Origin: a virus
Reading direction: 5' to 3' (one strand)
DNA length: 64,000 bases
IMG/VR virus record: IMGVR_UViG_3300002056_000074
Shown here in pieces: positions 15,919 to 64,000 of the stretch (its first letter is position 1; every line of letters starts with the position of its first letter). Made by a program: the position numbers and the translations under genes. The notes beneath the pieces are model-generated. The model searched no databases and had not been told where the DNA came from. It saw only the letters and a program-made list of their open reading frames with translations.

Positions 15919-17619
15919 ATGCCAAAAAAGGTAAATATTGAGAAAATGATCGCCGATGCAATAGAGTATCATGGTGATCATTATTCTTTTGAAAATTTCA
16001 CATATAGTGGAAATAAAAAATTTTGCACTATAACATGTAAATATCATGGTGATTTTCAAATTCGAGCAGGGCAATTTTTCAATCCATCCTCTCTAACTGG
16101 GTGTAGAAAATGTGGAATTATAAAAAATTCAAAATCTAAAAAATTGGATAGGGAAGAGGTATTTGATCGAATATATAAAAAATTTAATAATGCGTTTAAT
16201 ATAGATACTGAGTCATATACTTTGGTTAATTCACCATTAACATGCATCTGCCCTAAACATGGGGAGTTTGTTACTAGCGCAAATAGATTATTAAATCCTA
16301 AAATGAAATATGGGTGCAATTATTGTGCAACAGAACATGGATCTAAGAAGTTAAAATTATCAGATTCGGTACTTGAAGAAAGGTTGTTGGGAAAATATCC
16401 GTCATTTAAATTTGATATGAGTACTTATACTGCTGTCAATAAAAATATTAAATATGTATGTCCCGATCATGGAATAATGTTCTCAACGCCAAAAAATTTA
16501 TTACGTGATGATGTTAAACATGGGTGTATAAAATGTAGCCATGATTCAAATGCAGAAAAATTATTATTAACGGCTGATCAAATAAACGAACGTTTGATTA
16601 ATCGATTTAATGGAAAGATTAAATTTTTAAAATTTCCCAAAAACGATGATGGAATGCATACATTCGAGTGTTTACATCATGGAAAATTTGAAAATTTATT
16701 ATTTAATGTATTACAACCAAATAATGTTCATGGATGTAGAAAATGTTCTCGAATGGGAAATTCTAAATTTGAGGAGGGTATTAAATTATACTTATCTCAA
16801 ATATCACACTCAATCCAACGAGGAAATAGGAAAGTAATAAAACCACAAGAATTAGATTTTGTTTTAAATAACGAAATAGCAATTGAGTGTAACGGAAATT
16901 ATTGGCATTCAGAATTACAGGGGAAAGCGAAAAACTACCATTTAAATAAAACAGAAAAATGTAATGAATCTAATATTCGATTGATACATATTAGAGAGGA
17001 TGAATGGGAACATAAATCTGATATTGTTAAATCTCGCTTATCAAATATTTTACACTCAGATAATATAAAAAAATATCATGCTAGAAAACTAATAGTTAAA
17101 ATAGTCTCTAAGAAAAATGAAATGCAGTTTTTGGTCGATAATCACATACAAGGAAAATGCCCAAGTTCATTGGCCATAGGGTTATACGATGGAGTTGAAT
17201 TACTATCTATTATGACTTTTGGTAAATCAAGGTTTAATAAGAATTATGAATATGAACTTATTAGATTTTGCTCTAAAAATTTTACTTTGGTTCGGGGAGC
17301 TGCCAGTAGGTTATTTTCATATTTCATAAAAAATTATGATCCTAAGTCTATAGTGTCTTACTCTGATAGAGCGTGGAATACCGGAAAGTTATATGAATCT
17401 TTAGGATTTGAATTTAGTCATAACTCAACACCCAATTATAAATATTTTCATAGAAGTAGCGTATTACATTTAATGTCTAGACAAAAATTCCAAAAACATA
17501 AACTATCGAATATTCTAGAACATTATGATTCTAATAAGACCGAATGGGAAAATATGCAAGATAATAATTATGATAGAATTTGGGATTGTGGAAATTCGGT
17601 ATATGTATGGATGAAATAA
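15919..17619 (+). CDS. Homing endonuclease-like protein (CxxHG zinc-ribbon repeats, PD-(D/E)XK domain, C-terminal Hef-like domain)
   Basis: Repeated C..HG.F...L....GC..C units; ELDF..IAIECNGNYWH; C-terminal YDRIWDCG. Confidence 0.8.
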   Translation: MPKKVNIEKMIADAIEYHGDHYSFENFTYSGNKKFCTITCKYHGDFQIRAGQFFNPSSLTGCRKCGIIKNSKSKKLDREEVFDRIYKKFNNAFNIDTESYTLVNSPLTCICPKHGEFVTSANRLLNPKMKYGCNYCATEHGSKKLKLSDSVLEERLLGKYPSFKFDMSTYTAVNKNIKYVCPDHGIMFSTPKNLLRDDVKHGCIKCSHDSNAEKLLLTADQINERLINRFNGKIKFLKFPKNDDGMHTFECLHHGKFENLLFNVLQPNNVHGCRKCSRMGNSKFEEGIKLYLSQISHSIQRGNRKVIKPQELDFVLNNEIAIECNGNYWHSELQGKAKNYHLNKTEKCNESNIRLIHIREDEWEHKSDIVKSRLSNILHSDNIKKYHARKLIVKIVSKKNEMQFLVDNHIQGKCPSSLAIGLYDGVELLSIMTFGKSRFNKNYEYELIRFCSKNFTLVRGAASRLFSYFIKNYDPKSIVSYSDRAWNTGKLYESLGFEFSHNSTPNYKYFHRSSVLHLMSRQKFQKHKLSNILEHYDSNKTEWENMQDNNYDRIWDCGNSVYVWMK

Positions 17620-23727: not shown

Positions 23728-23946
23728 ATGTCTGCACAAGGAAAAATTGAATATTACGAAACTGAATCTGGATGGGAGTGGCGATTTATCGCGGCAAATG
23801 GTGAAGTACTCGCCCACTCAGGCGAAGTGTTTAGTAGTAAACAAGCTGTTCTAAAAAGCATAGAAACCACTACTGAATATTTTATTAATTATGATAAATT
23901 TGGGTTGTTGGTAGAAGTTGATTATAAAAATGGAGAAGAAAAATGA
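23728..23946 (+). CDS. DUF1508/YegP-like protein
   Basis: WEWRFIAANGEVLAHSGEVFSSKQ. Confidence 0.8.
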   Translation: MSAQGKIEYYETESGWEWRFIAANGEVLAHSGEVFSSKQAVLKSIETTTEYFINYDKFGLLVEVDYKNGEEK

Positions 23947-24512
23947 ATTTTAAAGATTTTACACAAAACGCACTTCGAACGGAAAGTGTACCGGATGTAG
24001 TAAGGATACACACTGAATTATTTGAAACTATGCAAGCAGTGTCAGTTAGTGTGGCAGATAATCTCGATCTGATTAAGAAAAATGTTTTTTATGGCAAAGA
24101 TCTTGATCAGGAACGAGTAGTTCGAAATTTGCGACATTGCAAAGTAATGCTAGAAAATCTATCAAAAAATATAGATGGAGATTCGGGGACATTTTCAAAA
24201 ATTGATGAGATGGTCATTAACCCGAGAGAATTTCATGGTGTATTGGGAATTTTGACAGAAGCCAATGAATTATTAGACTGTGTAAATTTAGGTTCAAAAT
24301 CATTGCCCGTAAAGGAGTGCGTGGATGAGTTGGGTGATGTTATGTGGTATACAGCAATTCTGGCGGATGAAAAAAATATTGATGTGGAAGATCAGGTGTT
24401 GGTGGCTGTTATTGATAAACTAAGAACTCGCTTCCCTGATAAATTTGATGCTGCGTTAGCGATTTCAAAAAATAAGGATATTGAAGGTGAAGTAACACAA
24501 AAATATGTTTGA
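23943..24512 (+). CDS. MazG-like nucleotide pyrophosphohydrolase
   Basis: HGVLGILTEANELLD and DELGDVMWYTA. Confidence 0.8.
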   Translation: MNFKDFTQNALRTESVPDVVRIHTELFETMQAVSVSVADNLDLIKKNVFYGKDLDQERVVRNLRHCKVMLENLSKNIDGDSGTFSKIDEMVINPREFHGVLGILTEANELLDCVNLGSKSLPVKECVDELGDVMWYTAILADEKNIDVEDQVLVAVIDKLRTRFPDKFDAALAISKNKDIEGEVTQKYV

Positions 24513-24615: not shown

Positions 24616-25044
24616 ATGTCAACTAGAACTTTAGATAGTTTAATGAATGACCTTTTTCGATCAGCTATTGGTTATGACGATCTATTTCGATCTATATCGA
24701 GAGCATCGATCAAACAACCAAATTTCCCACCCTATAATATCGTCAATACCGAAGATGGGCATGTAATAGCTGTTGCTCTAGCAGGATATGGTAATGATGA
24801 TATTGAAGTTACCGTAGATGCCGAAATTCTGACCATTAAAACAGTGGATGAATTGGATACTGCCAAGGATGAAGATGGTTTGGAAAATGTTCAGTATCGA
24901 GGTATTTCAAAACGGAAATTTAATCTTACCTTTTCATTGAATCGAAAATTGGAGGTATCTAGTGCTAAACTAGAAAACGGACTCTTAATGATAGATATAC
25001 GTAATGTAAAAAATGAAGATGTTAAGATGATACCCATCCTCTAA
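24616..25044 (+). CDS. hsp20: Small heat-shock protein (IbpA-like)
   Basis: FPPYNIV, AVALAGY, YRGISKRKF, LENGLLMI. Confidence 0.93.
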   Translation: MSTRTLDSLMNDLFRSAIGYDDLFRSISRASIKQPNFPPYNIVNTEDGHVIAVALAGYGNDDIEVTVDAEILTIKTVDELDTAKDEDGLENVQYRGISKRKFNLTFSLNRKLEVSSAKLENGLLMIDIRNVKNEDVKMIPIL

Positions 25045-25695: not shown

Positions 25696-26460
25696 ATGGG
25701 TAAAAAGGCTCGCAGATATTCACCCAACGCCACCCAACAGACAGATAACGTAGTATCTCTAAATTACCATGACCAACAAGCGAGATTGCATGGCCCTAAA
25801 AAGAAAAATTGGAGTATACATGATCTCCACAACGTAACTCCCCTAACAGAAAAACAAGAAGATATGTTTCATGCTTGGTTTCAGGGTGATGATATATGCG
25901 CTCATGGTTCAGCGGGAACAGGAAAATCCTTTTTATCGCTATTTTTAGCATGTTCGGAAATGTTAGACCGTGGAGAGCATGATAGGATAATTATTATTCG
26001 ATCTGCAGTTCAGGGGAGAGATATGGGCCATTTGCCCGGATCACTCGAAGAGAAATATGCAGAATATGAGGCTCCATATCAAGCAATTTTATCTGATTTA
26101 TTTGGACGTAAATCAACATATGCAGATATGAAAGAAGCTGGAAAAATAGAGTTTATGACAACTTCATTTATTAGGGGATTAACATTTGACAATGCCATTA
26201 TTATTCTTGACGAATTCCAAAATTGTACGTTTGCAGAAATCGACTCTGTAATGACGCGAGTGGGAAAGAATAGTAGAGTATTGGTGGCTGGTGATGATAA
26301 GCGTCAGTGTGATCTGAGGCACCATGAAGAGACGGGAAGTAATCGAATGATTAGTGCATTTAAGAAGATGGGGGAATTTTCTACTATCGAATTTAATACT
26401 GAGGATGTAGTAAGGTCTGCATATGCTAAATCGTGGTTGTTAGCAACTGGACAAGCCTAA
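25696..26460 (+). CDS. phoH: PhoH-family ATPase
   Basis: GSAGTGKS, GHLPGS, FIRGLTFDN, DEFQN, GD..QCDL. Confidence 0.95.
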   Translation: MGKKARRYSPNATQQTDNVVSLNYHDQQARLHGPKKKNWSIHDLHNVTPLTEKQEDMFHAWFQGDDICAHGSAGTGKSFLSLFLACSEMLDRGEHDRIIIIRSAVQGRDMGHLPGSLEEKYAEYEAPYQAILSDLFGRKSTYADMKEAGKIEFMTTSFIRGLTFDNAIIILDEFQNCTFAEIDSVMTRVGKNSRVLVAGDDKRQCDLRHHEETGSNRMISAFKKMGEFSTIEFNTEDVVRSAYAKSWLLATGQA

Positions 26461-29293: not shown

Positions 29294-29524
29294 ATGAGTA
29301 AATTAATCGAAAGTTTAGCCCGTTGGATCGAAGAGGTAGAGTCTGGTGAGCGAAAGGCTCCCAGTAAATATGAATTTGATCGAATTAAAAAAATTGTTGA
29401 TGAAAGTTCAACTACAGAAGATGAAGTAGTTGAAGATGAAGTAGTTGAAGATGAAGTAGTTGAAGAATTACTAGAAAGTTGTTTCTACCGGGGGTATGTT
29501 GATGATTTTGGAAGAATTATTTGA
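29294..29524 (+). CDS. Hypothetical protein with EDEVV x3 repeat
   Basis: 76-aa ORF with GGAG RBS; 15-bp unit GAAGATGAAGTAGTT x3 at 29417-29461. Confidence 0.6.
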   Translation: MSKLIESLARWIEEVESGERKAPSKYEFDRIKKIVDESSTTEDEVVEDEVVEDEVVEELLESCFYRGYVDDFGRII

Positions 29525-30020
29525 GTCAGAAGAAAAACCCCCCGGTACTTATGCTGCAGCCATATTTGATAAAGATTCTCAAAAAATAGTTGCAGACTAT
29601 ATTCGAAAAAATGAAATTCCAAATTCTACCAAACCGACAAAAATACATTGCACTATAATTTACAGTAGAGAACATATTCCAAATTTTAAAATAACTAAGA
29701 ATTATGATACTCCCTTAAAATGTGTACCTAATGGCCTTGTCGTATGGAAAACTCAACCAGATGATGACGGCAATACTAAAAACTGTTTAGTATTAAAATT
29801 GAAGTGTCCTGAAATTGTTAAGCGCCATGAGGAATTAATGCAAAAATACCCGATGGCAACATATGATTATCCAGAATTTAAGGTGCATATGACATTATCA
29901 TATGATATAGATGATATGACTAAGGATGATTTCCCAGATTTCGATGAAGAATTATATCTAAGTGGAGAAATTACAAGTCCATTGGATACTGTTTGGGCCA
30001 AGAAAAACACCAAAAAGTAA
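29496..30020 (+). CDS. acb1: Acb1/T4 gp57B-like 2H phosphodiesterase (anti-CBASS candidate)
   Basis: GTYAAA start, HCTIIYSR and HMTLSYD HxT motifs, LVLKL. Confidence 0.8.
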   Translation: MLMILEELFESEEKPPGTYAAAIFDKDSQKIVADYIRKNEIPNSTKPTKIHCTIIYSREHIPNFKITKNYDTPLKCVPNGLVVWKTQPDDDGNTKNCLVLKLKCPEIVKRHEELMQKYPMATYDYPEFKVHMTLSYDIDDMTKDDFPDFDEELYLSGEITSPLDTVWAKKNTKK

Positions 30021-30073: not shown

Positions 30074-30838
30074 ATGATTTCCAATAATTCATCTACTTTA
30101 GAGTTGACTTCCGAGCCAAATCCACCCGTACATTATTACCAAGAACATATCACTAATATAATACACCATTTTTATCTATCAACTGATATTGGTCCCGCAA
30201 CACATTATGTAGAGATGATTCACGCCATACGTACAGCAGCGCCTACTGATGTCGTCTTCATTCACTTAAATTCTGCTGGTGGTCACTTAGATACTGGAAT
30301 CCAAATAATCAACGCTATGCGCGAATCAAGAGCACATATTATATGTAGTATCGAATCCGAAGCGTACTCAATGGCATCATTAATCTTTTTGAGTGCTGAT
30401 GAATTTATTGTACATGAGAATTGTATGCTAATGATTCATAATTTCAGTAGTGGTATGGTTGGGAAGGGTAATGAACAGCGTTTGCGCCTAGATGCAACAT
30501 CTACACTTTTTGAGCGGTTTGCTCGTCCACTGTATGTACCGTTTATCTCAGAAGATGAATTTGATGGTGTGTTAGACGGGAAAGATATGTGGTTTCACAC
30601 AGATGAAATTCGGGATCGACTCATTAAAAATATGAATATCGCGAATGAAGATGAGATGCTTGGTGTTTTAAATCATGAAGAGGATGATGTTGAAGAAGAG
30701 GAGGTGGAGGTAGTGAAACCCAAACCGAAGCACAAGAAACGCCCGACACCACCACCAGTTAGGGATATAAAAGAGAGTGATGAACATAAGAAACGCATCT
30801 CATTATTAAAAAGTATTGACGCTGATGACGAAGTTTGA
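30074..30838 (+). CDS. ClpP-like serine protease
   Basis: HLNSAGG, AYSMASLIFL (Ser), LMIH (His). Confidence 0.85.
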   Translation: MISNNSSTLELTSEPNPPVHYYQEHITNIIHHFYLSTDIGPATHYVEMIHAIRTAAPTDVVFIHLNSAGGHLDTGIQIINAMRESRAHIICSIESEAYSMASLIFLSADEFIVHENCMLMIHNFSSGMVGKGNEQRLRLDATSTLFERFARPLYVPFISEDEFDGVLDGKDMWFHTDEIRDRLIKNMNIANEDEMLGVLNHEEDDVEEEEVEVVKPKPKHKKRPTPPPVRDIKESDEHKKRISLLKSIDADDEV

Positions 30839-33035: not shown

Positions 33036-34907
33036 TTGAGTAAGAATTATAGTGAAGATGATATTAAGGTATTGTCTGAAATTGAGCATATTCATAAGCG
33101 AACATCCATGTATCTCGGAACTACTGAGGAGACTGAATATCAAGTACCACTATTAAATAATACTTTTGAGATAGCAAATATTAGTTTTATTCCGGCAGTA
33201 ATGAAATTATTTTCCGAGATTGTTGATAACGCCAACGATGAGTTAATACAGGCTAATGTTAAATCACCTACAATAACAATAACCGCAGATTATGAAAGTC
33301 AAATTTTTTCAGTGGAAGATAATGGTAGAGGAATTCCTATTGGTAAGCATGAAACCGGGAAGTATACACCCGAGGTTGTATTTACATCTCTTCGATCAGG
33401 AAGGAATTTTTCCGATAATAAACAAAAGGGTGTTATAGGGTTAAATGGTGTAGGCTCTAGTATAGTGTGTATGTGCTCTGAATGGTTTGAGATTGAGATA
33501 TATCGTGATGGTAAGTGTTATAAGCAACTGTTTAGTGATGCATCTCGAATCATTGGCGACCCAATTATTTCAAAATCAAAGCGAATATCAGGAACTAAAG
33601 TATCTTTCAAATTGATGGATGGTATATTTAAAGATAAAACTCTACCAGAATCGTTAATTAGAAATCGGGCTGTCGAATTAGCAGCAACCAATCCCAATAC
33701 TAAAATAATTCTCAATGATGAGGAGTTTTTATATAAGAGGGGATTTCCAGAATTGGTATCTAATTATTTTGATGAAAGTATTCTCTTCGGTAATGATGAA
33801 ATAGAGTTTCATATTATTCGTGACTTTCATAAGGGACAAAATGAGCTTATTTTTTCATGGGTTAATAGTTCATTTTTGTATAATGGTGGTATTTGTAATA
33901 CGCAATTTATGAATGCATTCGTTGATAAAACTATTTCTCATTTAGCTACAATAGCAAAAAAACGAAAAATTAAATTGACTCGGGGGGATGTCCTCACAAA
34001 TTTACTATTTCTTGGAAATCTTAAAGTTAGTGATCCACAATATGATTCTCAAGCAAAAACTAAATTGACTGGCCCAAATTTGCGAAAGCCGATGGATGAT
34101 ATTATTGAGGCTAAGTGGAAGTTGTTTGTTCGAAATAATAAAGACTGGTTAGAAGAAATTGTTGAGCGTGCTGTTAGGAGAAGTAATGTTGCCGCTACAA
34201 AAGATATTTTAAAAGATGTTGGGAAAAGCAAGAAAATAAAATTAGAAGGATTTATGGATGCGACATCAAAGCAGCGCGAAGAATGTCAGTTATTGATAAC
34301 AGAAGGATTATCTGCAAGGGCCAATATAGTTGAATCCCGGAATCCAGAGACTATGGCTGCTTTGCCCCTAACCGGAAAAATAAACAATGTATATGGGGCT
34401 TCAGTGGCAGAATTAATGAAAATGGGCAAGGTATCTGATTTAATTAATGTCATTGGTTTGGTTCCCGGAAAAAGGGCAATTCGATCAGAACTTCGATATG
34501 GAAAAGTACATATATGTTCAGATGCAGATACTGATGGTGATCATATATGCGCTCTATTAATAAATCTGTTTTATCAATTTTGGCCAGAATTATTTGATCC
34601 ACGCTACCCACCATTTTTTCATAGAATGGTTGTTCCAAATATTGTTGCAGTTAAAGGGAAGAAAAGAATTCATTTTCCAAATAGGGGATCATATGAGGTG
34701 GTGAAAAATAAATATAAATCGTATGAAATTTCATATTTAAAGGGGTTGGCAACCATGAGTCGTGTAGATTGGGCAATGATTCTTGGTGGAGAATTTGATT
34801 CCTGTGATCCGATTCAGGATATTGATGGGACACTAGCTGACGTTATGAAGTTATTATTCAGCCCTGATGTTGATGCAAGAAAGGAATGGTTACACGCTGA
34901 TGAGTAG
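33036..34907 (+). CDS. Type II DNA topoisomerase large (ATPase+TOPRIM) subunit, T4 gp39+60-like
   Basis: EIVDNA.DE, DNGRGIP, GLNGVG, TEGLSA, DAD.DG.HI, YLKGL. Confidence 0.95.
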   Translation: MSKNYSEDDIKVLSEIEHIHKRTSMYLGTTEETEYQVPLLNNTFEIANISFIPAVMKLFSEIVDNANDELIQANVKSPTITITADYESQIFSVEDNGRGIPIGKHETGKYTPEVVFTSLRSGRNFSDNKQKGVIGLNGVGSSIVCMCSEWFEIEIYRDGKCYKQLFSDASRIIGDPIISKSKRISGTKVSFKLMDGIFKDKTLPESLIRNRAVELAATNPNTKIILNDEEFLYKRGFPELVSNYFDESILFGNDEIEFHIIRDFHKGQNELIFSWVNSSFLYNGGICNTQFMNAFVDKTISHLATIAKKRKIKLTRGDVLTNLLFLGNLKVSDPQYDSQAKTKLTGPNLRKPMDDIIEAKWKLFVRNNKDWLEEIVERAVRRSNVAATKDILKDVGKSKKIKLEGFMDATSKQREECQLLITEGLSARANIVESRNPETMAALPLTGKINNVYGASVAELMKMGKVSDLINVIGLVPGKRAIRSELRYGKVHICSDADTDGDHICALLINLFYQFWPELFDPRYPPFFHRMVVPNIVAVKGKKRIHFPNRGSYEVVKNKYKSYEISYLKGLATMSRVDWAMILGGEFDSCDPIQDIDGTLADVMKLLFSPDVDARKEWLHADE

Positions 34908-36402
34908 TAAAAAATCTCAAGAGCAAGTTATTCATGAATTTAAAGAAAATCACGGAAATAAATTTGATTATAGTGAAGTTGTTTACGAAGGCACTAATAA
35001 CAAGGTTTCTATAATTTGTCCCATACATGGAAAATTTTATCAAACTCCACGAGAACATATAAAGAGAAGTTTTGGTTGCAGGGAATGTAGTATAGAGTAC
35101 GCAAGAACAAAGACCACTATTTCAACAGAAGACTATATCAATTCGATAGATATTAATCACAGAAATTTGTATGATTTATCAAAGGTTAAATATGTTAGAA
35201 ACAAAAAAAAGATAATAGTTATATGCCCGAAGCATGGAGAATTTACTATATCGGCCGCAGTATTTAAAAATGGTGGTGGATGCACTAAATGCCAATATGA
35301 AAAACTTTCCAACCTTAATAGAGATTCTGAATCTTCTTTTATAGAAAAAAGTAAATTACTCTTCGGCAAAGATTATTTTAATTATTGGCCCATGCAATAT
35401 GGTAAAAATGGACTAGACTATATATATCTGTGGTGCAATAAACATAGTAAACTAGTTAAAACAAAGCCTCAGTATCATTTACAGGGAAATAACTCATGTA
35501 GGAGTTGTAGGAGTTGTAGTATGTTTGAATTGACCATTAAAAATTTTTTAGATGAGCATAATATAGAATATATCGAAAATGATAAAAGGTTACTACATCC
35601 CAAAGAGATAGATATTGTAATACCTGACCACAATATAGGAATTGAATGTGATGGTATATATTGGCACGGTGAAAGTAAGGGGAAATATAAAAAATATCAT
35701 TTGGAAAAAACTTTATCTGCGAATAATAATAATTATAGATTGATACATATTTTTGAAAATGAAATAATTAATAATGAAGAATTGGTTAAATCGAGATTAT
35801 CGGTAATTTTAAAATTATCAAATATTAAAAAATATGGCGCTAGGGAATTGCGTGTTGATTATGTTGATAAACAATTATGTGTTGATTTCTTAAACGAAAA
35901 CCATATACAGAAAAGTAGTAGTTCTAGTATTGATATTGCATTATTTCGGGAGACTGAGATAATTGCAGTGATGACATTTGGTATGGCGAGGTACAGTCAA
36001 CGACACGAGTATGAATTGATACGATTTTGTTGTAAAAAATTTGTTACTGTTAGTGGTGGTGCTTCTAAATTATTTAAATATTTTATAAAGAATCATAATC
36101 CAAAATCGATAGTATCATATTCAGATATTCGCTGGAATACGGGCAAATTATACAAAAATCTCGGATTTCTCGAAACTCATAAATCTGCACCCAATTATAA
36201 ATATTTTTGCAAACCCGACATATATAACCTACTATCTAGGGTTTCTTTTCAAAAGCACAAACTAAAATCTAAATTACTCCACTATGATGAAAAACTCACA
36301 GAATGGGAAAATATGCAAGCAAATGGATATGATAGAATATGGGATTGTGGGAACATTGTATTTGAATGGTTGCAACCTGTTAAAGATAATGATATAATTT
36401 AA
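34900..36402 (+). CDS. Homing endonuclease-like protein, paralog of 15919..17619
   Basis: ICPIHG/ICPKHG repeats, IGIECDGIYWH, YDRIWDCG; likely start at 34900 overlapping the topo stop. Confidence 0.8.
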   Translation: MSSKKSQEQVIHEFKENHGNKFDYSEVVYEGTNNKVSIICPIHGKFYQTPREHIKRSFGCRECSIEYARTKTTISTEDYINSIDINHRNLYDLSKVKYVRNKKKIIVICPKHGEFTISAAVFKNGGGCTKCQYEKLSNLNRDSESSFIEKSKLLFGKDYFNYWPMQYGKNGLDYIYLWCNKHSKLVKTKPQYHLQGNNSCRSCRSCSMFELTIKNFLDEHNIEYIENDKRLLHPKEIDIVIPDHNIGIECDGIYWHGESKGKYKKYHLEKTLSANNNNYRLIHIFENEIINNEELVKSRLSVILKLSNIKKYGARELRVDYVDKQLCVDFLNENHIQKSSSSSIDIALFRETEIIAVMTFGMARYSQRHEYELIRFCCKKFVTVSGGASKLFKYFIKNHNPKSIVSYSDIRWNTGKLYKNLGFLETHKSAPNYKYFCKPDIYNLLSRVSFQKHKLKSKLLHYDEKLTEWENMQANGYDRIWDCGNIVFEWLQPVKDNDII

Positions 36403-57962: not shown

Positions 57963-58054
57963 AAAGGTCTGAGAGAATCCAAAATTTTTTTAGAAATTTT
58001 TAGAGATGTCGGGAATAATGGTGGGGTATTGTTTTTAGAGAGTTAGAAGAGTCG

Positions 58055-58104
58055 TTTTAGAAAGAATGATTTTAGAAAGAATGATTTTAGAAAGAATGAT
58101 TTTA
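58055..58104. repeat. 15-bp tandem repeat TTTTAGAAAGAATGA x3
   Basis: Direct reading. Confidence 0.9.
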
Positions 58105-58506
58105 AACTTTTTTCTAGAATACTTGCCGAACTGTGATGACCTTCAGATTGTGACATATCTCCCAGTGGTATCCCATCACAAAACAAAACATTCTTAAATT
58201 GTCTACCACATCACACCACGATGGCATCACAAAAAATAATTCTAATACCTAGACACCATCACAAAGTTACTACAAACATTTCTCTATAGTGTGAACATCA
58301 TTCCATATCATGAAGAACTACATCACATGTTAGATATCATGTTACTGTGTCACATAAATGAATATCCAATTGTGTGATGGATGCACAATGTGAGGAATGT
58401 CTCATATGAACTGTGTCACAAAAAAGAAAGAACTATGTCTCTCTTTTGATTATTGTGGACTGTAGCACAAAAAGAAGATTCCATTCTTCTTTTGTTGATT
58501 TGTGAT

Positions 58507-58785
58507 TCAGTACTCATTCCAGAACATTGAGTAATCATCTTCCATTATTGGGTGATCCATCACAAAATCACCCATCTCTTCGCGCACATTTTCCATTTCT
58601 GAGGCTTCATCCACAATCTCGTTAATTGCCCCGTGATCTATCTCATCATAATTGTGTCTTGTGTGCTCATCCACATAACGATCAACACACCCATTCACAA
58701 AACTCGATTCTGTGAAACCATTCACAAAATCAAGGACAATTTCACGAACAGCAATAACAAGAGCATCTTGTGATACAGTAGACAT
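58507..58785 (-). CDS. Early-cassette hypothetical acidic protein
   Basis: TATAAT promoter (58821-58826) and CAGGA RBS. Confidence 0.7.
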   Translation of the reverse strand: MSTVSQDALVIAVREIVLDFVNGFTESSFVNGCVDRYVDEHTRHNYDEIDHGAINEIVDEASEMENVREEMGDFVMDHPIMEDDYSMFWNEY

Positions 58786-59168
58786 ATTTGAATTCCTGTT
58801 TAGGATGAGAGGATGTGTCCATTATACCGCGCTGCCCGAGAATATTCGTGCTCCCATCACAAATTTGTTCGCAATCGAAAATTATTTTTTGTGATCGAAG
58901 TCCGATGATATATTTGTCCCGTTTTTGTGATCGCGTTCGCAGAACGTACATCTGGGATAAATGTCTCACCGTGCATAGTAGACATTGAGACATTTCTTCC
59001 AATAATGCGTTTTGTGTGGTTCATCACAAAAACGAGACAAATCTCTCAAGGGACTTGCATCACAAAAAATAATTCTGAAAGCTGTGCTTTTTTGTGCGCT
59101 ATGCACGGACAGGGCCGATAGCTCGGCCTATAATGGTCACATCTTCTACGCAATCAGGTACACGCAAC

Positions 59169-59417
59169 ATGGCTAACACTGAATCACTGTTCAAAAATCT
59201 TGAAGTTCTCACCATGCGTGAGCGCGGTGACTATAGAGAGTGGTCACTGGATAGTGACGAGGCCACCGTCATAAAGACGGTAAAAGGCGAATACTTTTAT
59301 GATAGTCTTTTTCATGTATCGGAAGCCCTGTTGGGTGATGTCCGTAGGACAGTGCCATATGAATTCTTCAGAAGTGAGGATTGTAGTAAACAAAAGTTTG
59401 AGATCTTCACAATGTGA
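59169..59417 (+). CDS. Early-cassette hypothetical protein (start MANTES)
   Basis: TATAAT at 59129-59134; ends at a terminator. Confidence 0.7.
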   Translation: MANTESLFKNLEVLTMRERGDYREWSLDSDEATVIKTVKGEYFYDSLFHVSEALLGDVRRTVPYEFFRSEDCSKQKFEIFTM

Positions 59418-59425
59418 TCTAATTC

Positions 59426-59451
59426 AAAAAAGGGGCTTCGGCCCCTTTTTT
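59426..59451 (+). terminator. Rho-independent terminator (GGGGC-TTCG-GCCCC)
   Basis: UUCG hairpin with flanking A and T runs. Confidence 0.85.
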
Positions 59452-59914
59452 GTGATCTATTTTTATTTTTGTAGGTTTGAGATATTTCTCACATGTCAAA
59501 TCAATCACAAAAAATAATGTGAACTTCTCGCATCGTTTTTTCTTTGTATGCCTTCGAGATAGTTACCCTATACACTGACATCACTCGCACCTATACGGCT
59601 CGGTATCGACGCTCAGAGCATCAGGAAACGATAGTTTGAACCAACGGCTGACAGTAATCTATAGCTAACAGACCAAAGGATCAACCCACAAGATATTGTG
59701 ATGGAGTAGACATTACAACATTTCTCACATTGTGATGTAAGTTTGTTGAGACATTTCTCTCAATACCACGTTCTGCGAACGCGATCACAAAAAAGGGACA
59801 AATACCTCATCGGACTTCGATCACAAAAAAATAATTCCAGAACCGATCCTTTTTTGTGACCCAAGCACGGGACATAACCGATCAATCGACCTACAATGGC
59901 ACCACACCAACGCA

Positions 59915-60382
59915 ATGAGACACACGACTATGACCGCATCTGCTACCCAGTTCGCTATTGTTGCCGTTTTTCAGGTTCGTGAGAACTACGCCGCCCATGA
60001 TGGTTTTACGGGCGAGTATTACTGGAAGTGTAAGGGAGGCGAGGAGGCCGTGTCCGATCTTATGTCGCTCGATACCCTTATGGGTATGGATCAAGCCGCT
60101 AAGGAAGCGCTGGTCGCTTCTATTGCGCCCGAGTCTAACGACTATTATGAGCACACGCTCATAGATTGGGAAATTGTTTCCCTTGACTCCGAATCTGCGA
60201 ACAGGGTCGCAGATTTTATTGCCGAATCTCCGGGCGAGGATATTGATTTCCTGCGGTACAAGTTTGGTAACGATTTCCTATTTGATTGGGCCGTGAAGCA
60301 GCGCCCAGAAATAGCAAAAAATACTTCCGACCCTTTCGGATATGCGAGGCGGTTGGGGATTGAGCTACCGACCGCTGCGTAG
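59915..60382 (+). CDS. Early-cassette hypothetical protein
   Basis: TACAAT at 59892; VxxQxRENYAAH..F.G..YWKCKGG motif; start may be 59930. Confidence 0.75.
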   Translation: MRHTTMTASATQFAIVAVFQVRENYAAHDGFTGEYYWKCKGGEEAVSDLMSLDTLMGMDQAAKEALVASIAPESNDYYEHTLIDWEIVSLDSESANRVADFIAESPGEDIDFLRYKFGNDFLFDWAVKQRPEIAKNTSDPFGYARRLGIELPTAA

Positions 60383-60390
60383 TTCACAAA

Positions 60391-60424
60391 ACAGAAAAGG
60401 GAACCAAAAGGTTCCCTTTTCTGT
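60391..60424 (+). terminator. Terminator hairpin
   Basis: ACAGAAAAGGGAACC-AAAA-GGTTCCCTTTTCTGT. Confidence 0.8.
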
Positions 60425-60664
60425 GATATAATTTTATTTTTATAGGTCTGAGACATTTTACACAAAAAACTTACATCACAAAATAAAAATGTGAAGTTAT
60501 CGCATCATTTTTTCTCTGTGTACTCTCATCCCAGTTATCCTATACGATGATACTACTGACACTTATACGGTCGCATACAGAGCCAATGGCTGGCACTGTT
60601 GGGTATTTATTGGCATATATACTGAAGTACCACCTCTCAATTCATTCGGTTGATGACGAGGAAT

Positions 60665-60707
60665 TGTGAGGTAGATCACCGAAAAATACTTTCGTACCCC
60701 CTATAAT
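60665..60707 (+). promoter_or_regulatory. CRP class II-like promoter: TGTGA-GGTAGA-TCACC centred at -41.5 plus TATAAT
   Basis: Box 60665-60680, -10 at 60702-60707, no TTGACA. Confidence 0.6.
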
Positions 60708-60744
60708 AGTTTACACACCAACGCAAAAACGAGACTTAAATCAC

Positions 60745-61188
60745 ATGAAAACTCGATTCACTAATGTTGATGCAGTTCGCACTTTCCTTGCCCAATCTCA
60801 GGATTATGGCACAAATGCTGGTGGATCGTTTTATTTTCGTGATTCCGTCGCATATTCGTATGGGGATCATTATCCGTTGGCGCGCTTCTTGTCATGTGGT
60901 ACGCTTCTCATTTCTGAGCGCGATAGCTCACCTACTACAAACAAACTCAACACATTACTAAGGCGTGAAGCCCGCTGTGAGATTATCGAAGTGCAAGATG
61001 TACTAGCAGATACCCGTGATGATCGTGGCGCTAACATGGACCGCTTGAATGCTCTAGCAGAGCAATCTAAAGCTAAGGCTAGCCGCTCGCGCAAATACGC
61101 TGAGCTTCATCTAAACGATGCCAGCCGCTACTATAATATGCTAACCCGATATATGGAATTGACGGTTCCCGATGCGATAGCCGCCTAA
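60745..61188 (+). CDS. Early-cassette hypothetical protein
   Basis: 147-aa ORF (YSYG.HYPLAR motif) between promoter and terminator. Confidence 0.75.
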   Translation: MKTRFTNVDAVRTFLAQSQDYGTNAGGSFYFRDSVAYSYGDHYPLARFLSCGTLLISERDSSPTTNKLNTLLRREARCEIIEVQDVLADTRDDRGANMDRLNALAEQSKAKASRSRKYAELHLNDASRYYNMLTRYMELTVPDAIAA

Positions 61189-61198
61189 CACAAACACG

Positions 61199-61236
61199 AA
61201 AAAGAAAGTGAGAGATGATTCTCACTTTCTTTTTTT
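61199..61236 (+). terminator. Terminator hairpin
   Basis: AAAAGAAAGTGAGA...TCTCACTTTCTTTT plus T run. Confidence 0.75.
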
Positions 61237-61468
61237 AATACACTTTTTTGTTTTGTGATCGGATACCAGTGAGACATTTTTCACACTGTGATCCAATTCT
61301 TTTGAGACATTTCTCACAAAAGTATTCTATCACAAAAATAAAGTGTGATCTAGTTCCAGTTGATCCACGTCACAAAAATAAAATAAAAAATCATCACAAA
61401 AATTGTGAACCAATGCCACCATTTTTTATTCATCGCAGTATAATGATCGCACACCAACCAACGTAGGA

Positions 61469-61744
61469 ATGGATATGCACAAGCTGACTGTCGTAGAACT
61501 TGATATCTGGGGCGACGAGGTAGACGGTTTTGAGGTGAACAATGCGTTCTATACGTCTTATTCACTGGGTGTCTCCGAGGATTGTAGCGATGCGAAAATC
61601 ATTCAAGGTTTGATCGACATTGATTACCTGTCAGTTGATGTGACCGAGGATGATGTAGAGATCGACGGAGATCCTGAGCACGGTCTTTATATCAACCTCG
61701 CAGAGAATGGTAAGCCGTTGATCCATCTCCTCCCCAGATACTAA
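61469..61744 (+). CDS. Early-cassette hypothetical acidic protein
   Basis: TATAAT at 61439; LDIWGDEVDGFEVNN motif. Confidence 0.75.
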   Translation: MDMHKLTVVELDIWGDEVDGFEVNNAFYTSYSLGVSEDCSDAKIIQGLIDIDYLSVDVTEDDVEIDGDPEHGLYINLAENGKPLIHLLPRY

Positions 61745-61786
61745 TAGGTAGGCGCTGGTAAGGTTTCTATAATTTACCAGCGCCAT

Positions 61787-61834
61787 ACACTTTTACACTT
61801 TTACACTTTTACACTTTTACACTTTTACACTTTT
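61787..61834. repeat. ACACTTTT x6 directly upstream of TATAAT (61837-61842)
   Basis: Direct reading. Confidence 0.9.
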
Positions 61835-61874
61835 CCTATAATGGACACCATACCAACGTAAACGGGCAAGCATT

Positions 61875-62084
61875 ATGAATAAGTCATTCCTATCTATTGA
61901 GCACACGTTCAAAAATGTTGAGAATGGTGAACTACTTAACATTGCAGTTGAGCGAACGGTGCCGCCCGAGAATGGTGTCTCAGAATGTGAGCACGTTACT
62001 GCCATTGGGCACAAAATGGCGAAAGCCATCACACTTTCTGGAACATGGGTATATTTTATGTCTCAATGGGTAAACTGTGAATAA
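61875..62084 (+). CDS. Early-cassette hypothetical protein
   Basis: TATAAT at 61837; 69 aa. Confidence 0.65.
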   Translation: MNKSFLSIEHTFKNVENGELLNIAVERTVPPENGVSECEHVTAIGHKMAKAITLSGTWVYFMSQWVNCE

Positions 62085-62326
62085 AATCACTAAATAATCC
62101 TACAGACTAATATAGGAAATTATTGTTGAGAACCAAATAACACAGATTTTTGTGTTATTTGGTCCATAATATACACAAAGTATGTCAGACTTCTTTATCA
62201 GACAACGATAGTGAGAGATAGATCACAAATTAACTTTTGTGATCTATCCTACAGCGAGACATTTCTCACAGATGTATTGGTCCACAAAAAGAAGATTCCA
62301 TTCTCTTTTTTGTGGACTACTGCTCA

Positions 62327-62521
62327 TTATTTTTTCGTAGCAGCCCGTTCTTCCTGATAGGAAAACAGTGTAGCTTGTGCATCTGTTAATGCTTTAATGC
62401 GCTTTTCAATTTGACTATATTCCATATCTGCATGGACAGCTTCTAATTCATTTGCACGGCGGATGACCGCCAGCTTAAAACCACGTTCGATCATGTTAGC
62501 AGTGTCAGTAGATACGCTCAT
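62327..62521 (-). CDS. Early-cassette hypothetical protein (true start MSVST at 62521)
   Basis: Minus-strand TATAAT (62558-62563) and CAGGA RBS; the longer ORF call runs across the promoter cassette. Confidence 0.7.
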   Translation of the reverse strand: MSVSTDTANMIERGFKLAVIRRANELEAVHADMEYSQIEKRIKALTDAQATLFSYQEERAATKK

Positions 62522-62557
62522 ATTTAGATTCCTGTATAGGTCGATTCGATGTGGTCC

Positions 62558-62669
62558 ATTATAACGCCATGTCTTAAAATATCCGTGATGTCGATCACAA
62601 AAAATAATTTCAAATCCGATTCTTTTTTGTGATCGTATTCTCTCCAATTTTTTTAGTCGCTGGTATAAT
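62558..62669. promoter_or_regulatory. Symmetric bidirectional promoter cassette
   Basis: ATTATA...CGTGA-N6-TCACA-AAAAA...TTTTT-TGTGA...TGG-TATAAT. Confidence 0.7.
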
Positions 62670-62700
62670 GGACATATTCCCACCAATGAATATGTAAACA

Positions 62701-63120
62701 ATGTCTGATCTTATCAATATGCGTGTTTTTCGCGTTGAACACATGACAGACAAGCATGATAGTTCTAAGCATTTCTTAGGTCCATTCGGTCACAATAGTT
62801 GTATGTTTGCCTACGCTTGTAACACGTTGCTAGATGATGATCCGTATTCCCATCCTATCCCTAGCAATGATGGAATATCCTTGCGATGGTTTGAAGGCAA
62901 CCGTGTATGTGCAGTGCAGACATTGGATATGGTAGCAGAATGGTTTGAGTGCCCGTTGGGAAGGCGAGCGATGGCTAGTCTAGGTTTTCATGTAGTCGAG
63001 TATCAAGCATCTGTTAACGCCGCTCATATAGGCGATATGCAAGTAGTATTTGATCCATCACTAGCCGAGCCTGTTTCGACCTATCATCTCGAAACCTTGC
63101 AGAAGTTCACAAATTGCTAA
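62701..63120 (+). CDS. Early-cassette hypothetical protein
   Basis: VFRVEH...GP...HP.P..DG...WF pattern; TATAAT at 62664. Confidence 0.75.
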   Translation: MSDLINMRVFRVEHMTDKHDSSKHFLGPFGHNSCMFAYACNTLLDDDPYSHPIPSNDGISLRWFEGNRVCAVQTLDMVAEWFECPLGRRAMASLGFHVVEYQASVNAAHIGDMQVVFDPSLAEPVSTYHLETLQKFTNC

Positions 63121-63295
63121 TAAAAGTTGTTTTGTGATTGGTTGATGGGTGATATTTTTCACAAATAGATGAGTTCACAAACCTCCATCACAAAAAATAA
63201 TTTTCAAATAGGAGTATTTTTTGTGAGTTAGTTACTGTACCTATCAATCCAATTTACCTATAATAGCCCCATCAACCAACGAGAGATTAGACGTT

Positions 63296-63490
63296 ATGAG
63301 CAAAGAGCAAATGCAAAAGATTTTCGCTGAATATGATTGTGAAAACAAGACTCAGTATCTTGAGATGCTCGCTGACGAGAATGATGTACCGTTGTCTGAT
63401 GTTCAGATGCTCGCTGATATTCTAGGTGATAATGAGTTGTTTGATGGTCTAGTGACTAGTGTTGAGGACATGGGAGGCGGTTGGATGTAA
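63296..63490 (+). CDS. Early-cassette hypothetical acidic protein
   Basis: YLEMLA...V..LADILG.NE.FDGLV motif; TATAAT at 63259. Confidence 0.75.
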   Translation: MSKEQMQKIFAEYDCENKTQYLEMLADENDVPLSDVQMLADILGDNELFDGLVTSVEDMGGGWM

Positions 63491-63537
63491 TTTTCTGTAG
63501 TGTGTTGTGTGTAGCAGAATCGTGGTGGATTCTGTAG

Positions 63538-63559
63538 AAGGGGCTTCGGCCCCTTTTTT
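63538..63559 (+). terminator. Rho-independent terminator (GGGGC-TTCG-GCCCC)
   Basis: Same hairpin as at 59432, with T run. Confidence 0.85.
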
Positions 63560-63574
63560 GTGATCTATTTTTAT

Positions 63575-63618
63575 TGTGACATTTCTCACATAAAAATAAT
63601 TATGTGAAATTGATCACA
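63575..63618. promoter_or_regulatory. Two perfect CRP-consensus cores TGTGA-N6-TCACA (63575-63590, 63603-63618)
   Basis: TGTGACATTTCTCACA and TGTGAAATTGATCACA. Confidence 0.7.
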
Positions 63619-63721
63619 CAAAAATAATATCAAATAGCACTATCAAATTGTGAATCAATACCACCATATTTTTATCCATCGCGCTATAATGACTCCACAT
63701 CAACCAAAACAGGAATACAAA

Positions 63722-63991
63722 ATGTCATCTGTCGAATCACTCAAGTTCGTAATTAACAACAACGGTGATGCTGCGAAAACGTTGATGGAAAACTATCGCA
63801 ATGTGTTCTTGCTTGCGATGGATTTAGACAAGGCTATGGCTCTTGCAAGCCCTCACGCTCGCAATTACCAGACTGCCGAGGTTGGAGAATTCGAGGCTGA
63901 TGTGAAGCTCTGGAATGAGCTGAGAACGCAACTAAAAAATATTGAGAACGTGGCTGCAAAAGCAGGCTACCGCGCAATCCAAAAGAAGTAA
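63722..63991 (+). CDS. Early-cassette hypothetical protein (start MSSVES)
   Basis: TATAAT at 63683; CAGGA RBS; VINNNGD...L motif. Confidence 0.72.
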   Translation: MSSVESLKFVINNNGDAAKTLMENYRNVFLLAMDLDKAMALASPHARNYQTAEVGEFEADVKLWNELRTQLKNIENVAAKAGYRAIQKK

Positions 63992-64000
63992 TAACAAAAT

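Follow-up and report, generated by a model that had tools for sequence, protein, structure and literature searches.

A small-gene array in an uncultured giant phage carries -35-less promoters with CRP-type sites at fixed distances

The window analysed here is a stretch of 64,000 nucleotides from an uncultured giant phage (IMG/VR record IMGVR_UViG_3300002056_000074). Positions 58000-64000 hold the left part of an array, a run of about 14 kb with about 29 small ORFan transcription units, which public contigs of the same phage extend by about 8.5 kb past the end of the window. The units served are probably early or host-takeover genes. The left part of the array contains the following features:

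58105-58500, no strand: ORF-free, site-packed stretch with about 14 TGTGA/TCACA pentamers and 9/10 cores at 58132, 58149, 58389 and 58405; left border of the array
58507-58785, minus strand: small ORFan gene of 92 aa, transcribed from the promoter at 58826; perfect TGTGA-N6-TCACA at 58711
58821-58894, minus strand: class-A promoter cassette; -10 58821-58826, proximal half-site 58857-58861, distal half-site 58890-58894
59013-59134, plus strand: promoter of the 82-aa gene; far site 59013-59028 (9/10), distal TCACA 59060-59064 with A6 and TAATT after it, proximal T6-GTGC 59087-59097, -10 59129-59134
59169-59417, plus strand: small ORFan gene, 82 aa
59425-59509, plus strand: post-terminator composite element; hairpin 59425-59452 joined directly to TTTTGTGATCTA, 9/10 core 59478, further core adjoining it at 59494
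59774-59897, plus strand: promoter of the 150/155-aa gene; far site 59774 (9/10), distal TCACA 59821-59825, proximal TGTGA 59855-59859, TACAAT 59892-59897
59915-60382, plus strand: small ORFan gene, 155 aa, with an alternative ATG at 59930
60391-60424, plus strand: intrinsic terminator hairpin, then TGTGATATA
60665-60707, plus strand: promoter of the 147-aa gene; full site 60665-60680 (9/10) centred at about -41.5, -10 60702-60707, distal site absent
60745-61188, plus strand: small gene, 147 aa, whose N-terminus matches phrog_7247 (function unknown)
61199-61444, plus strand: intergenic module; hairpin 61199-61234, three tiled 16-mers at 61270, 61287 and 61303, TCACA at 61330 and 61370 (distal), proximal TGTGA 61404-61408, -10 61439-61444
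61469-61744, plus strand: small ORFan gene, 91 aa
61786-61842, plus strand: (TACACTTT)x6 tandem repeat, directly adjoining the -10 box (61837-61842)
61875-62084, plus strand: small ORFan gene, 69 aa
62327-62521, minus strand: small ORFan gene of 64 aa, transcribed from the promoter at 62563
62558-62669, both strands: bidirectional module; -10 boxes 62558-62563 (minus) and 62664-62669 (plus), 9/10 core at 62584, common quasi-palindrome from TCACA 62595-62599 to TGTGA 62628-62632
62701-63120, plus strand: 139-aa gene of Pfam family PF26820 (Phage_T4_Y00F)
63148-63264, plus strand: promoter of a 64-aa gene; 9/10 core 63148, TCACA 63175, distal TCACA 63188-63192, proximal TGTGA 63222-63226, -10 63259-63264
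63296-63490, plus strand: small ORFan gene, 64 aa
63538-63690, plus strand: terminator-promoter module; terminator 63538-63559 joined directly to TGTGATCTA, perfect core 63575, second perfect core 63603 serving as the distal site (TCACA at 63614-63618), proximal TGTGA 63649-63653, -10 63685-63690
63722-63991, plus strand: small ORFan gene, 89 aa

Hairpins at 59425, 60391, 61199, 62132 and 63538 are each followed by a promoter module, and terminator and promoter are fused in every gap of the array. As RNA, the ORF-free stretch at 58105-58500 folds no better than its shuffles (z = -1.8).

Across the array we identified 17-18 promoters that have CRP-type sites and a perfect or near-perfect -10 but no -35 element. 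Perfect TATAAT makes up 16 of 18 hexamers and is usually followed by GG. The best match to TTGACA at a spacing of 16-18 nt averages 2.72/6 in the 18 promoters, against 2.57/6 at random positions, which bears out the first-pass annotation of this DNA in its statement that TTGACA is lacking. An extended -10 occurs in one promoter only. We also looked at C at -13, directly before the -10, a feature of sigma-S type -35-independent promoters, which is present in 12 of the 18. Since canonical -35-bearing promoters occur elsewhere in this phage, the cassette promoters form a special class.

The first-pass annotation had described ten -10 boxes in this part of the window, and all of them exist, the last TATAAT starting at 63685 rather than 63683. 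Nine, the number it had reported, carry TGTG(A/C) starting 35-37 nt upstream of the hexamer, but the T-tract it placed before this motif is a true one in six, the other three having AAT or AAAT. The box at 61837 is the only one of the ten without the TGTG cassette, and represents a deletion variant. The TCACA-A-tract claimed for eight boxes is present, at 68-71 nt upstream. Counted from a start site assumed to be 7 nt past the -10, the centres of these sites lie at -83.5 (one), -84.5 (four, where five had been counted) and -86.5 (three).

In 17-18 promoters of the array TGTG begins 35-37 nt and (T/C)CACA 68-72 nt upstream of the -10. In 18, 19-21 bp separate the end of the proximal 16-mer from the hexamer, so that the proximal site is fixed within 1 bp; the position of the distal site varies by 2 bp. 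These tolerances fit a class II site together with an upstream site reached by flexible contact. For transcription starting 7 nt past the -10, the proximal centre falls at -39.5 to -41.5 and the distal centre at -83.5 to -87.5, and on this assumption the proposed class II/III CRP-like geometry holds. The second upstream site is found in 16 of 18 promoters, with 32-36 bp between the pentamers and about 44 bp from centre to centre. The resulting 44-bp quasi-palindromic cassette reads TCACA, A5-6, TAATT, about 15 nt, T5-6 and GTGA, its distal site having the form nnnGA-N6-TCACA about 44 bp upstream of the proximal TGTGA half-site. One such palindromic cassette is common to two divergent promoters, with the spacing mirrored. 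The window contains approximately 186 further TA[TC]AAT hexamers, and TTTGTG is correctly spaced from none of them.

The proximal site itself is uneven: 16 of 18 promoters have a perfect upstream half, its downstream half is near random (mean 1.8/5), and only two of 18 score at least 9/10, most being a half-site with a T-tract. These promoters share with class II promoters a predicted centre near -41.5 and a weak or absent -35 but not two recognisable proximal half-sites, and share with class III promoters a second site upstream at a fixed, roughly helically phased distance.

The sites are concentrated in the array, far more so than chance would give. Of 32 strong sites, 28 are intergenic, and half-sites occur at 19.7 per kb of intergenic DNA versus 4.4 per kb of coding DNA. 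There are 20 TGTGA-N6-TCACA sites scoring at least 9/10 in 58000-64000 versus eight in 1-57999 (shuffles, 0.16), and 31 in the whole array of 14.4 kb, six of them perfect (shuffles, 0.5). TGTGA/TCACA pentamers number 76 in 6 kb versus about 1.8 per kb elsewhere, and TCACAAAA has 29 copies in the same 6 kb versus two in the other 58 kb. The spacing is specifically N6, as expected of the CRP-family core that had been recognised earlier: other spacers (2-11) give 0-8 sites in the array, compared with 31, and the partner half of TCACAAA words matches at 4/5 or better in 10 of 36 cases at N6 versus 0-2 at other spacings. Nine further near-perfect cores had been listed as well; all are present and eight score 9-10/10, the one at 62255 scoring 8/10. 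Overall, the CRP-site promoter observation is confirmed, and is stronger than first described. The reading first placed on it, first-wave transcription wired to host cAMP-CRP or a CRP-family mimic, is supported in part.

Because promoters without a -35 carry CRP-type sites at fixed distances, the presumed early genes are probably activator-dependent, and we consider that the array promoters probably depend on a CRP-type activator. We give about an even chance to a dimeric activator of the CRP/FNR type, with host cAMP-CRP as the simplest candidate, driving these promoters. RNA polymerase with the host primary sigma factor would then be unable to use them unaided and would be brought in by the activator. 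Host cAMP-CRP, if it is the protein, would occupy the proximal site, centred at about -40.5 in the class II position, and the upstream site would help by way of the alpha C-terminal domains, in the manner of class II/III activation. Activation rather than repression is our reading of the geometry, and early timing is presumed.

Several features exceed textbook CRP, including half-sites with a T-tract, an asymmetric word, a 16-bp register and a low coding share. The commonest word, (G/C)ATCACAAAAAA, is a half-site with an A-tract and is also the best conserved. Site flanks are A/T-rich (TTTT-TGTGA ... TCACA-AAAA), with T preferred 5' of TGTGA. The E. coli CRP consensus is a 22-bp site with the flanks AAATGTGA ... 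TCACATTT; the polarity in the phage is the opposite. TGTGA to TCACA distances peak at 11, 27 and 43 nt and TCACA to TCACA distances at 16 nt, a 16-bp register that is too tight for neighbouring CRP dimers, and 48-bp half-full-half elements in this register follow the terminators. The asymmetric word, the flank polarity and the register count against plain CRP, as do three further observations: the decisive position at -40.5 conserves the upstream half-site only, the 3-6 sites per promoter, many of them as far out as -115 to -175, are more than activation needs, and CRP requires neither the spacer (C/T)ATTT(C/T) nor the A at core position 3 (TGAGA) common to about 12 sites.

A phage-made protein, virion-delivered or early, may instead be the real ligand of the ATCACA-A-tract words. 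It would assemble along intergenic DNA in the 16-bp register, and would either turn the promoters on, as middle rather than first-wave promoters, or coat them for later shut-off. We regard this as a rather doubtful reading, although the asymmetric word with its A-tract, the 48-bp elements, the conserved spacer CATTTC, the very high density of sites and the low coding density all favour it. The array is also a lineage-specific feature, with no copy in IMG/VR and 0-1 perfect sites per 300-440 kb in the nearest cultured relatives, and a canonical promoter at the array border, TTTACA-N17-TATACT, could make such a factor first. However, no ORF of at least 40 aa was found 3' of that promoter, a DNA-binding domain is absent from all 20 array proteins scanned, and the core and its N6 spacing match CRP exactly, which a new protein would not require. 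Weak evidence for the host's own CRP as the activator is that none of the 40 proteins scanned, from the smaller part of the genome, has a CRP or cNMP-binding domain.

The cassettes are 80-100% identical over 38-106 bp beside genes that are unrelated ORFans. Near-identical assemblies differ only by cassette-sized indels, namely a whole 168-nt cassette and an 84-nt promoter segment, some of which may be assembly artefacts; in the present variant the 168-nt full cassette is lost between 61834 and 61835, and four other assemblies have it at the 61837 box. Together with the fusion of terminator and promoter in every gap, these data would suit portable promoter-terminator modules kept alike by duplication and recombination, with the TGTGA words as passengers. 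Such modules would fire without an activator by virtue of a perfect -10, a GG discriminator and an UP-like element formed by the T-tract or by upstream curvature; the T6 tract spans -53 to -48, the region of the distal UP subsite. Modules of a similar kind, the PeSLs, are documented (PMC2839356, PMC4122927). We nevertheless consider this improbable. Published PeSL promoters carry -35 and -10 hexamers, whereas the cassettes here have no -35, and N6-specific palindromes are found outside the cassettes too. Moreover, from one cassette to the next TGTGA, TCACA and the A/T tracts are constant in sequence and in distance although the spacers are free to vary, which indicates selection on the sites and not plain homology.

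The sites could also serve mainly to soak up host CRP. About 150 half-sites, including about 30 strong full sites, would do so as phage DNA replicates, reprogramming host catabolite control or shutting off the array by diluting its own activator. Many strong sites would be useless for activation, as in the ORF-free block at 58105-58500 and at about -115 to -175; further, and better, palindromes lie at the latter distance and directly 3' of terminators. The intergenic half-site density of 19.7 per kb and a coding share of only 49-62% in the array would fit as well. Titration is nonetheless very unlikely as the main role: it depends wholly on CRP as the ligand, and the strict promoter geometry assigns a promoter role to two or more sites in each unit.

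The phage promoters can be compared with the CRP/CAP-dependent promoters of Gammaproteobacteria of class II and class III (tandem-site), examples being galP1, melR and the synthetic CC(-41.5) derivatives in the scheme of Busby and Ebright. They resemble these in combining a good -10 with the lack of a -35, in having a site of TGTGA-N6-TCACA type centred about 28-29 bp upstream of the -10 hexamer, and in having a second site about 44 bp further upstream. They differ in that a half-site with a T-tract usually takes the place of the full proximal site, the flank polarity is the reverse of that in the E. coli consensus, each promoter has 3-6 sites, of which some follow a 16-bp register, and 14 kb of a giant phage of lytic type contain about 18 copies of the predicted activator design. 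A -35-less promoter is also activated by p4 of phi29, at late A3, from an upstream inverted repeat flanked by A-tracts, and there too the same sites serve divergent promoters. However, the sequence of the p4 sites is another one and their centre is near -82, the genome has a single regulatory region of this kind, and the phage itself encodes the activator.

The promoter-early stem-loop cassettes (PeSLs) of T4-type phages are likewise terminator-like hairpin and promoter modules between small ORFan genes in plastic regions, are more alike than the genes they flank, and have indels at the cassettes between close variants, as the assemblies of this phage may (PMC2839356, PMC4122927). Their promoters are of the sigma-70 type with a -35, near-consensus TTGACA-N17-TATAAT in RB49/phi1 and looser in other pairs (PMC4122927), whereas this phage has a TGTGA/TCACA activator-type cassette in place of the -35. 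In phage T1, which is regarded as lytic, cAMP-CRP controls the promoters pir, dam and recE (PMC6737242). As would be the case here, host CRP acts directly at several promoters, but T1 is an experimentally shown case of repression at few promoters (PMC6737242), while the geometry of the array points to activation. Finally, T4-like cyanophages have 1-16 predicted sites for the CRP-family regulator NtcA spread over the whole genome, proposed to tie phage expression to host nutrient status (PMC3037559). They too are T4-related phages with predicted sites for a CRP-family global regulator of the host. However, the NtcA motif is GTA-N8-TAC rather than TGTGA-N6-TCACA (PMC3037559), and its scattered sites accompany genes of diverse function, in contrast to the approximately 30 strong sites within 14 kb of an ORFan cassette array found here.

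We found all ten of the -10 boxes that the first-pass annotation had placed between positions 58000 and 64000, although the last of these begins at 63685 rather than 63683. Six of the promoters (58826 and 62563 on the minus strand, and 59129, 59892, 62664 and 63259) share the same hexamer-anchored cassette, which runs in the order TCACA, A6, TAATT, about 15 nt, T6 and GTGA, and in which TTTGTG precedes the -10 box by 37-39 nt and CACAAA precedes it by 67-70 nt. The window has approximately 186 further TA[TC]AAT hexamers, none of which shows this arrangement. Promoters 61439 and 63685 are laid out in the same way and have a weaker T-tract; promoter 60702 carries a full site, matching 9 of the 10 core bases of TGTGA-N6-TCACA, at the proximal position and lacks a distal site. 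In addition, an element at 62594-62637 is common to two divergent promoters with mirrored spacing. The public locus L007 (ENA contig k119_108531) of the same phage is identical to the window sequence except for two indels and extends about 9 kb further. Its 20.4 kb contain 17-18 promoters with TGTG 35-37 nt and (T/C)CACA 68-72 nt upstream of the -10 box; the hexamer is TATAAT in 16 of 18, C is present at -13 in 12 of 18, and GG follows the -10 box in most of them. The proposed absence of a -35 element was borne out, with a best -35 match of 2.72/6 across the 18 promoters, equivalent to the 2.57/6 of random positions. The proximal position is kept within 1 bp of its place relative to the -10 box and the distal position within 2 bp, the pattern expected of a class II site with an upstream site acting via a flexible contact. 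Between the proximal 16-mer and the hexamer lie 19-21 bp. A phiKZ-like virion RNA polymerase promoter was rejected, since the phage has T4/XacN1-like replication genes and, elsewhere, canonical sigma-70 promoters.

Judged by its bases, the core of the motif is CRP-like. TGTGA and TCACA pentamers number 76 in the 6 kb of the array within the window, whereas the remainder of the window has about 1.8 per kb. Sites of at least 9/10 to TGTGA-N6-TCACA occur 20 times in 58000-64000 and eight times in the other 58 kb, compared with 0.16 in shuffled sequence. Similarly, positions 5200-19600 of L007 contain 31 such sites, six of them perfect (0.5 in shuffles), whereas other spacers of 2-11 gave 0-8 sites. 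N6 is also the only spacing at which TCACAAA words show enrichment of the partner half-site, and such specificity suggests a dimeric CRP/FNR-type protein. Strong sites are intergenic in 28 of 32 cases, and half-site density in the array is 19.7 per kb between genes versus 4.4 per kb within genes.

Centres of strong sites relative to the inferred start site, assumed to lie 7 nt after the -10 box
-40.5 or -41.5: two sites
-84.5 to -87.5: five sites
-102.5: two sites
-114.5 to -122.5: eight sites
-140 to -207: six sites

With the start site so placed, the distal and proximal sites together have the putative geometry of class II/III activation. The fixed distances and two pentamers, with variable sequence between them, argue for selection on protein-binding sites over mere cassette homology. 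A purely structural or recombinational role, like that of the promoter-early stem-loop (PeSL) cassettes of T4-type phages, would fit the terminator and promoter between ORFans and the 80-100% likeness of the cassettes; as PeSL promoters have a -35 element (PMC4122927), we regard this explanation as quite unlikely. The host's own regulator is the most economical choice, since the earliest transcription has to rely on what the cell or virion already has, and a host CRP-type regulator may well drive the putative early promoters in a class II/III manner, a reading that we hold with middling confidence. By geometry the array is a predicted class II/III design and a candidate, unproven member of a CRP regulon, for which we infer early timing, start sites and ligand.

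The sites also depart from plain CRP sites. Conservation at the proximal position is limited to the upstream half and its T-tract; the downstream half averages 1.8/5. The distal site, nnnGA-N6-TCACA, is better than the proximal one, and its strongest feature is the A5-6 TAATT that follows. The most enriched words are asymmetric, including (G/C)ATCACAAAAAA and TCACAAAA, which occurs 29 times in 58000-64000 versus 2 in the other 58 kb. The flanks read TTTT-TGTGA ... TCACA-AAAA and run opposite to those of the E. coli consensus. About 12 sites form a subfamily, T-GAGA-CATTTC-TCACA, in which the spacer is conserved and core position 3 is A. All intergenic gaps share one order of parts, namely a terminator hairpin, TTTTGTGATCTA, the T-GAGA-CATTTC-TCACA 16-mer and, 16 bp on, ATCACAAAAA. 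For perfect pentamers, the TGTGA-to-TCACA distance shows maxima at 11, 27 and 43 nt and the TCACA-to-TCACA distance a maximum at 16 nt; neighbouring CRP dimers would seem to have too little room in this 16-bp register. The asymmetric words, the tiling at 16 bp and the surplus of sites would suit a phage-made ligand in place of host CRP, while the 40 proteins scanned, part of a genome of at least 280 kb, contain no CRP or cNMP-binding domain; we consider such a ligand possible but doubtful. A more elaborate proposal, and an unlikely one, is that TGTGA words serve as the address of a dedicated phage nucleoprotein system. Here a phage protein, with or without captured host CRP, would polymerise along half-full-half elements and 44-bp quasi-palindromes, keeping to the 16-bp register, switch on the -35-less promoter bank and later silence or insulate it, and replicating DNA would strip CRP from the host regulon. 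Titration of CRP by the sites, as an additional role, seems very improbable.

A 400-bp ORF-free block at 58105-58500 contains about 14 pentamers; its RNA folding was no better than that of shuffled sequences. Rfam returned nothing credible. DnaA boxes, IHF, Fis, and LacI-type and lambda-type operators, compared by eye only, were set aside for misfits of word or spacing. Involvement of Dam was likewise rejected, since GATC is not enriched beyond the motif's own share.

The array covers approximately L007 5200-19600 and includes about 29 small genes, with only 62% of the sequence coding (49% in the window's share). Of the 20 array proteins scanned, all but a member of the Phage_T4_Y00F family (62701-63120) and those with weak PHROG matches of unassigned function are ORFans, and neither tblastn nor a peptide-pattern search found relatives of the array proteins. 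Plus-strand units have a common C/A-rich leader, CAC(A)CCAAC(G/C)(C)AA, which starts about 7-13 nt after the -10 box (for example 59900-59918, 60712-60728, 61450-61466 and 63270-63285), and both minus-strand units have CCTAnACAGGAAT-TnAAAT-ATG in the 5' leader. These common leaders may be a translation-enhancing or RNA-level signal. The minus-strand gene 58507-58785 carries, near its 5' end at 58703-58734, a perfect TGTGA-N6-TCACA and two TCACAAAA words, which together also form a terminator-like hairpin.

Small features of the array
62687-62698: mini-ORF of three codons (ATG AAT ATG TAA) in the leader, just 5' of the ATG (62701) of the Y00F-family gene
61786-61842 (L007 8918-9142): (TACACTTT)x6 tandem repeat bordering a 168-nt promoter cassette on the left

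Promoter 61837 had been singled out as the one exception to the common layout. It is atypical in the window, but the complete 168-nt cassette is present there in L007-L010 (L007 8967-9134). The window and L006 lack this cassette, so that the (TACACTTT)x6 repeat abuts the -10 box at 61837. A further 71-nt deletion at the TACACTTT repeat in L009 removes the end of the gene for a 91-aa protein and its terminator, and the repeat looks like a deletion hotspot. L006 also lacks three segments of 160-168 nt found in L007 (11699-11863, 12792-12951 and 18415-18582), two of which start at the same point in identical promoter cassettes, after CCACCATA, and end in the downstream gene. Their equal size suggests an assembly artefact or recurrent deletion, and some of the indels between assemblies may be artefacts. 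The window also lacks an 84-nt segment adjoining a 15-bp tandem repeat, TTTTAGAAAGAATGA, of 3.3 copies (window 58055-58104, L007 5152-5235). The same segment of L007 contains TTTACA-N17-TATACT, the one canonical promoter at the array border, and this promoter points into the ORF-free, site-dense block. Two non-coding stretches, 59500-59720 and 60470-60700, are 75% identical and share the blocks AATGTGAA...TCGCATC...TTTTTTCT, AGTTAyCCTATAC and ACyTATACGG. Neither stretch has a convincing ORF, -10 box or Rfam match; they could represent promoter cassettes in decay, or else a small RNA.

The window belongs to a large uncultured phage and encodes ribonucleotide reductase, a split topoisomerase II, a B-family DNA polymerase, homing endonucleases, PhoH, MazG, Hsp20, a ClpP-like protease and an Acb1 homologue. 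Genes for the homologues of Acb1 (29496-30020; anti-CBASS nuclease family, Pfam E 9e-29), PhoH (25696-26460), MazG (23943-24512), Hsp20 (24616-25044) and the ClpP-like protease (30074-30838) are clustered; PhoH, MazG and Hsp20 form a set typical of marine T4-like phages. Two large HNH/homing-endonuclease genes (15919-17619 and 34867-36402; phrog_559, E ~1e-120) are also present, one 3' of the ribonucleotide reductase gene and the other between two topoisomerase II subunit genes.

Nine public contigs, the longest of 280,865 bp, carry the same phage, and a homology search with the 139-aa protein of the array returned only the phage's own copies (loci L006-L010). Searching phage records for DNA similar to 58000-64000 gave no match, and the window DNA is without a match in the phage collection. 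The best cultured matches share only 34-38% protein identity and are jumbo phages of Proteobacteria, namely Xanthomonas Xoo-sp13 and XacN1, Stenotrophomonas CM1, Ralstonia RsoM2USA and Rak2-like phages. Counts of perfect sites in five of the closest cultured jumbo phages are 0-1 per 300-440 kb. One relative, 58% identical in its DNA polymerase, is represented by a 26-kb fragment with one motif copy and without the early region. No clusters of matches turned up when IMG/VR was scanned with the composite motif, GAGACATTTCTCACA and ATCACAAAAAATAATT, and one metagenome motif scan gave only three chance matches. The site array is lineage-specific. In the host search, no genome relatives of the oxidase and no match to the GlyGly-CTERM model were found, Atlas taxa gave no host pointer, and sugar-transferase homologues were spread over many phyla at no more than 50% identity.

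If the sites bind host CRP, the entire presumed bank of takeover genes of a giant, lytic-type phage would be conditional on the carbon/cAMP state of the host, providing a built-in check of host conditions before infection commits, and infection success would be predicted to depend on glucose or cAMP. If a phage protein binds instead, the array would represent a new early/middle transcription switch in large phages without a MotA/AsiA-type system. On either reading, it offers about 18 natural variants of one candidate activator-dependent promoter, including one bidirectional form and one natural cassette deletion, and hence an unusually rich test bed for relating activator-site position and half-site strength to promoter output.

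Sites for host CRP-family regulators have been described in phages before, as predicted NtcA sites in T4-like cyanophages (PMC3037559), and cAMP-CRP represses promoters of phage T1 (PMC6737242). The units of terminator and promoter between ORFans resemble PeSL cassettes, from which they differ in that PeSL has a -35 element (PMC4122927). Compared with known cases, the array is new in its scale, with roughly 18 promoters and roughly 30 strong sites across 14 kb, in its design of a half-site and tract at the activating position, in a quasi-palindromic cassette working in both directions, and in its tiled extra sites and very low coding density.
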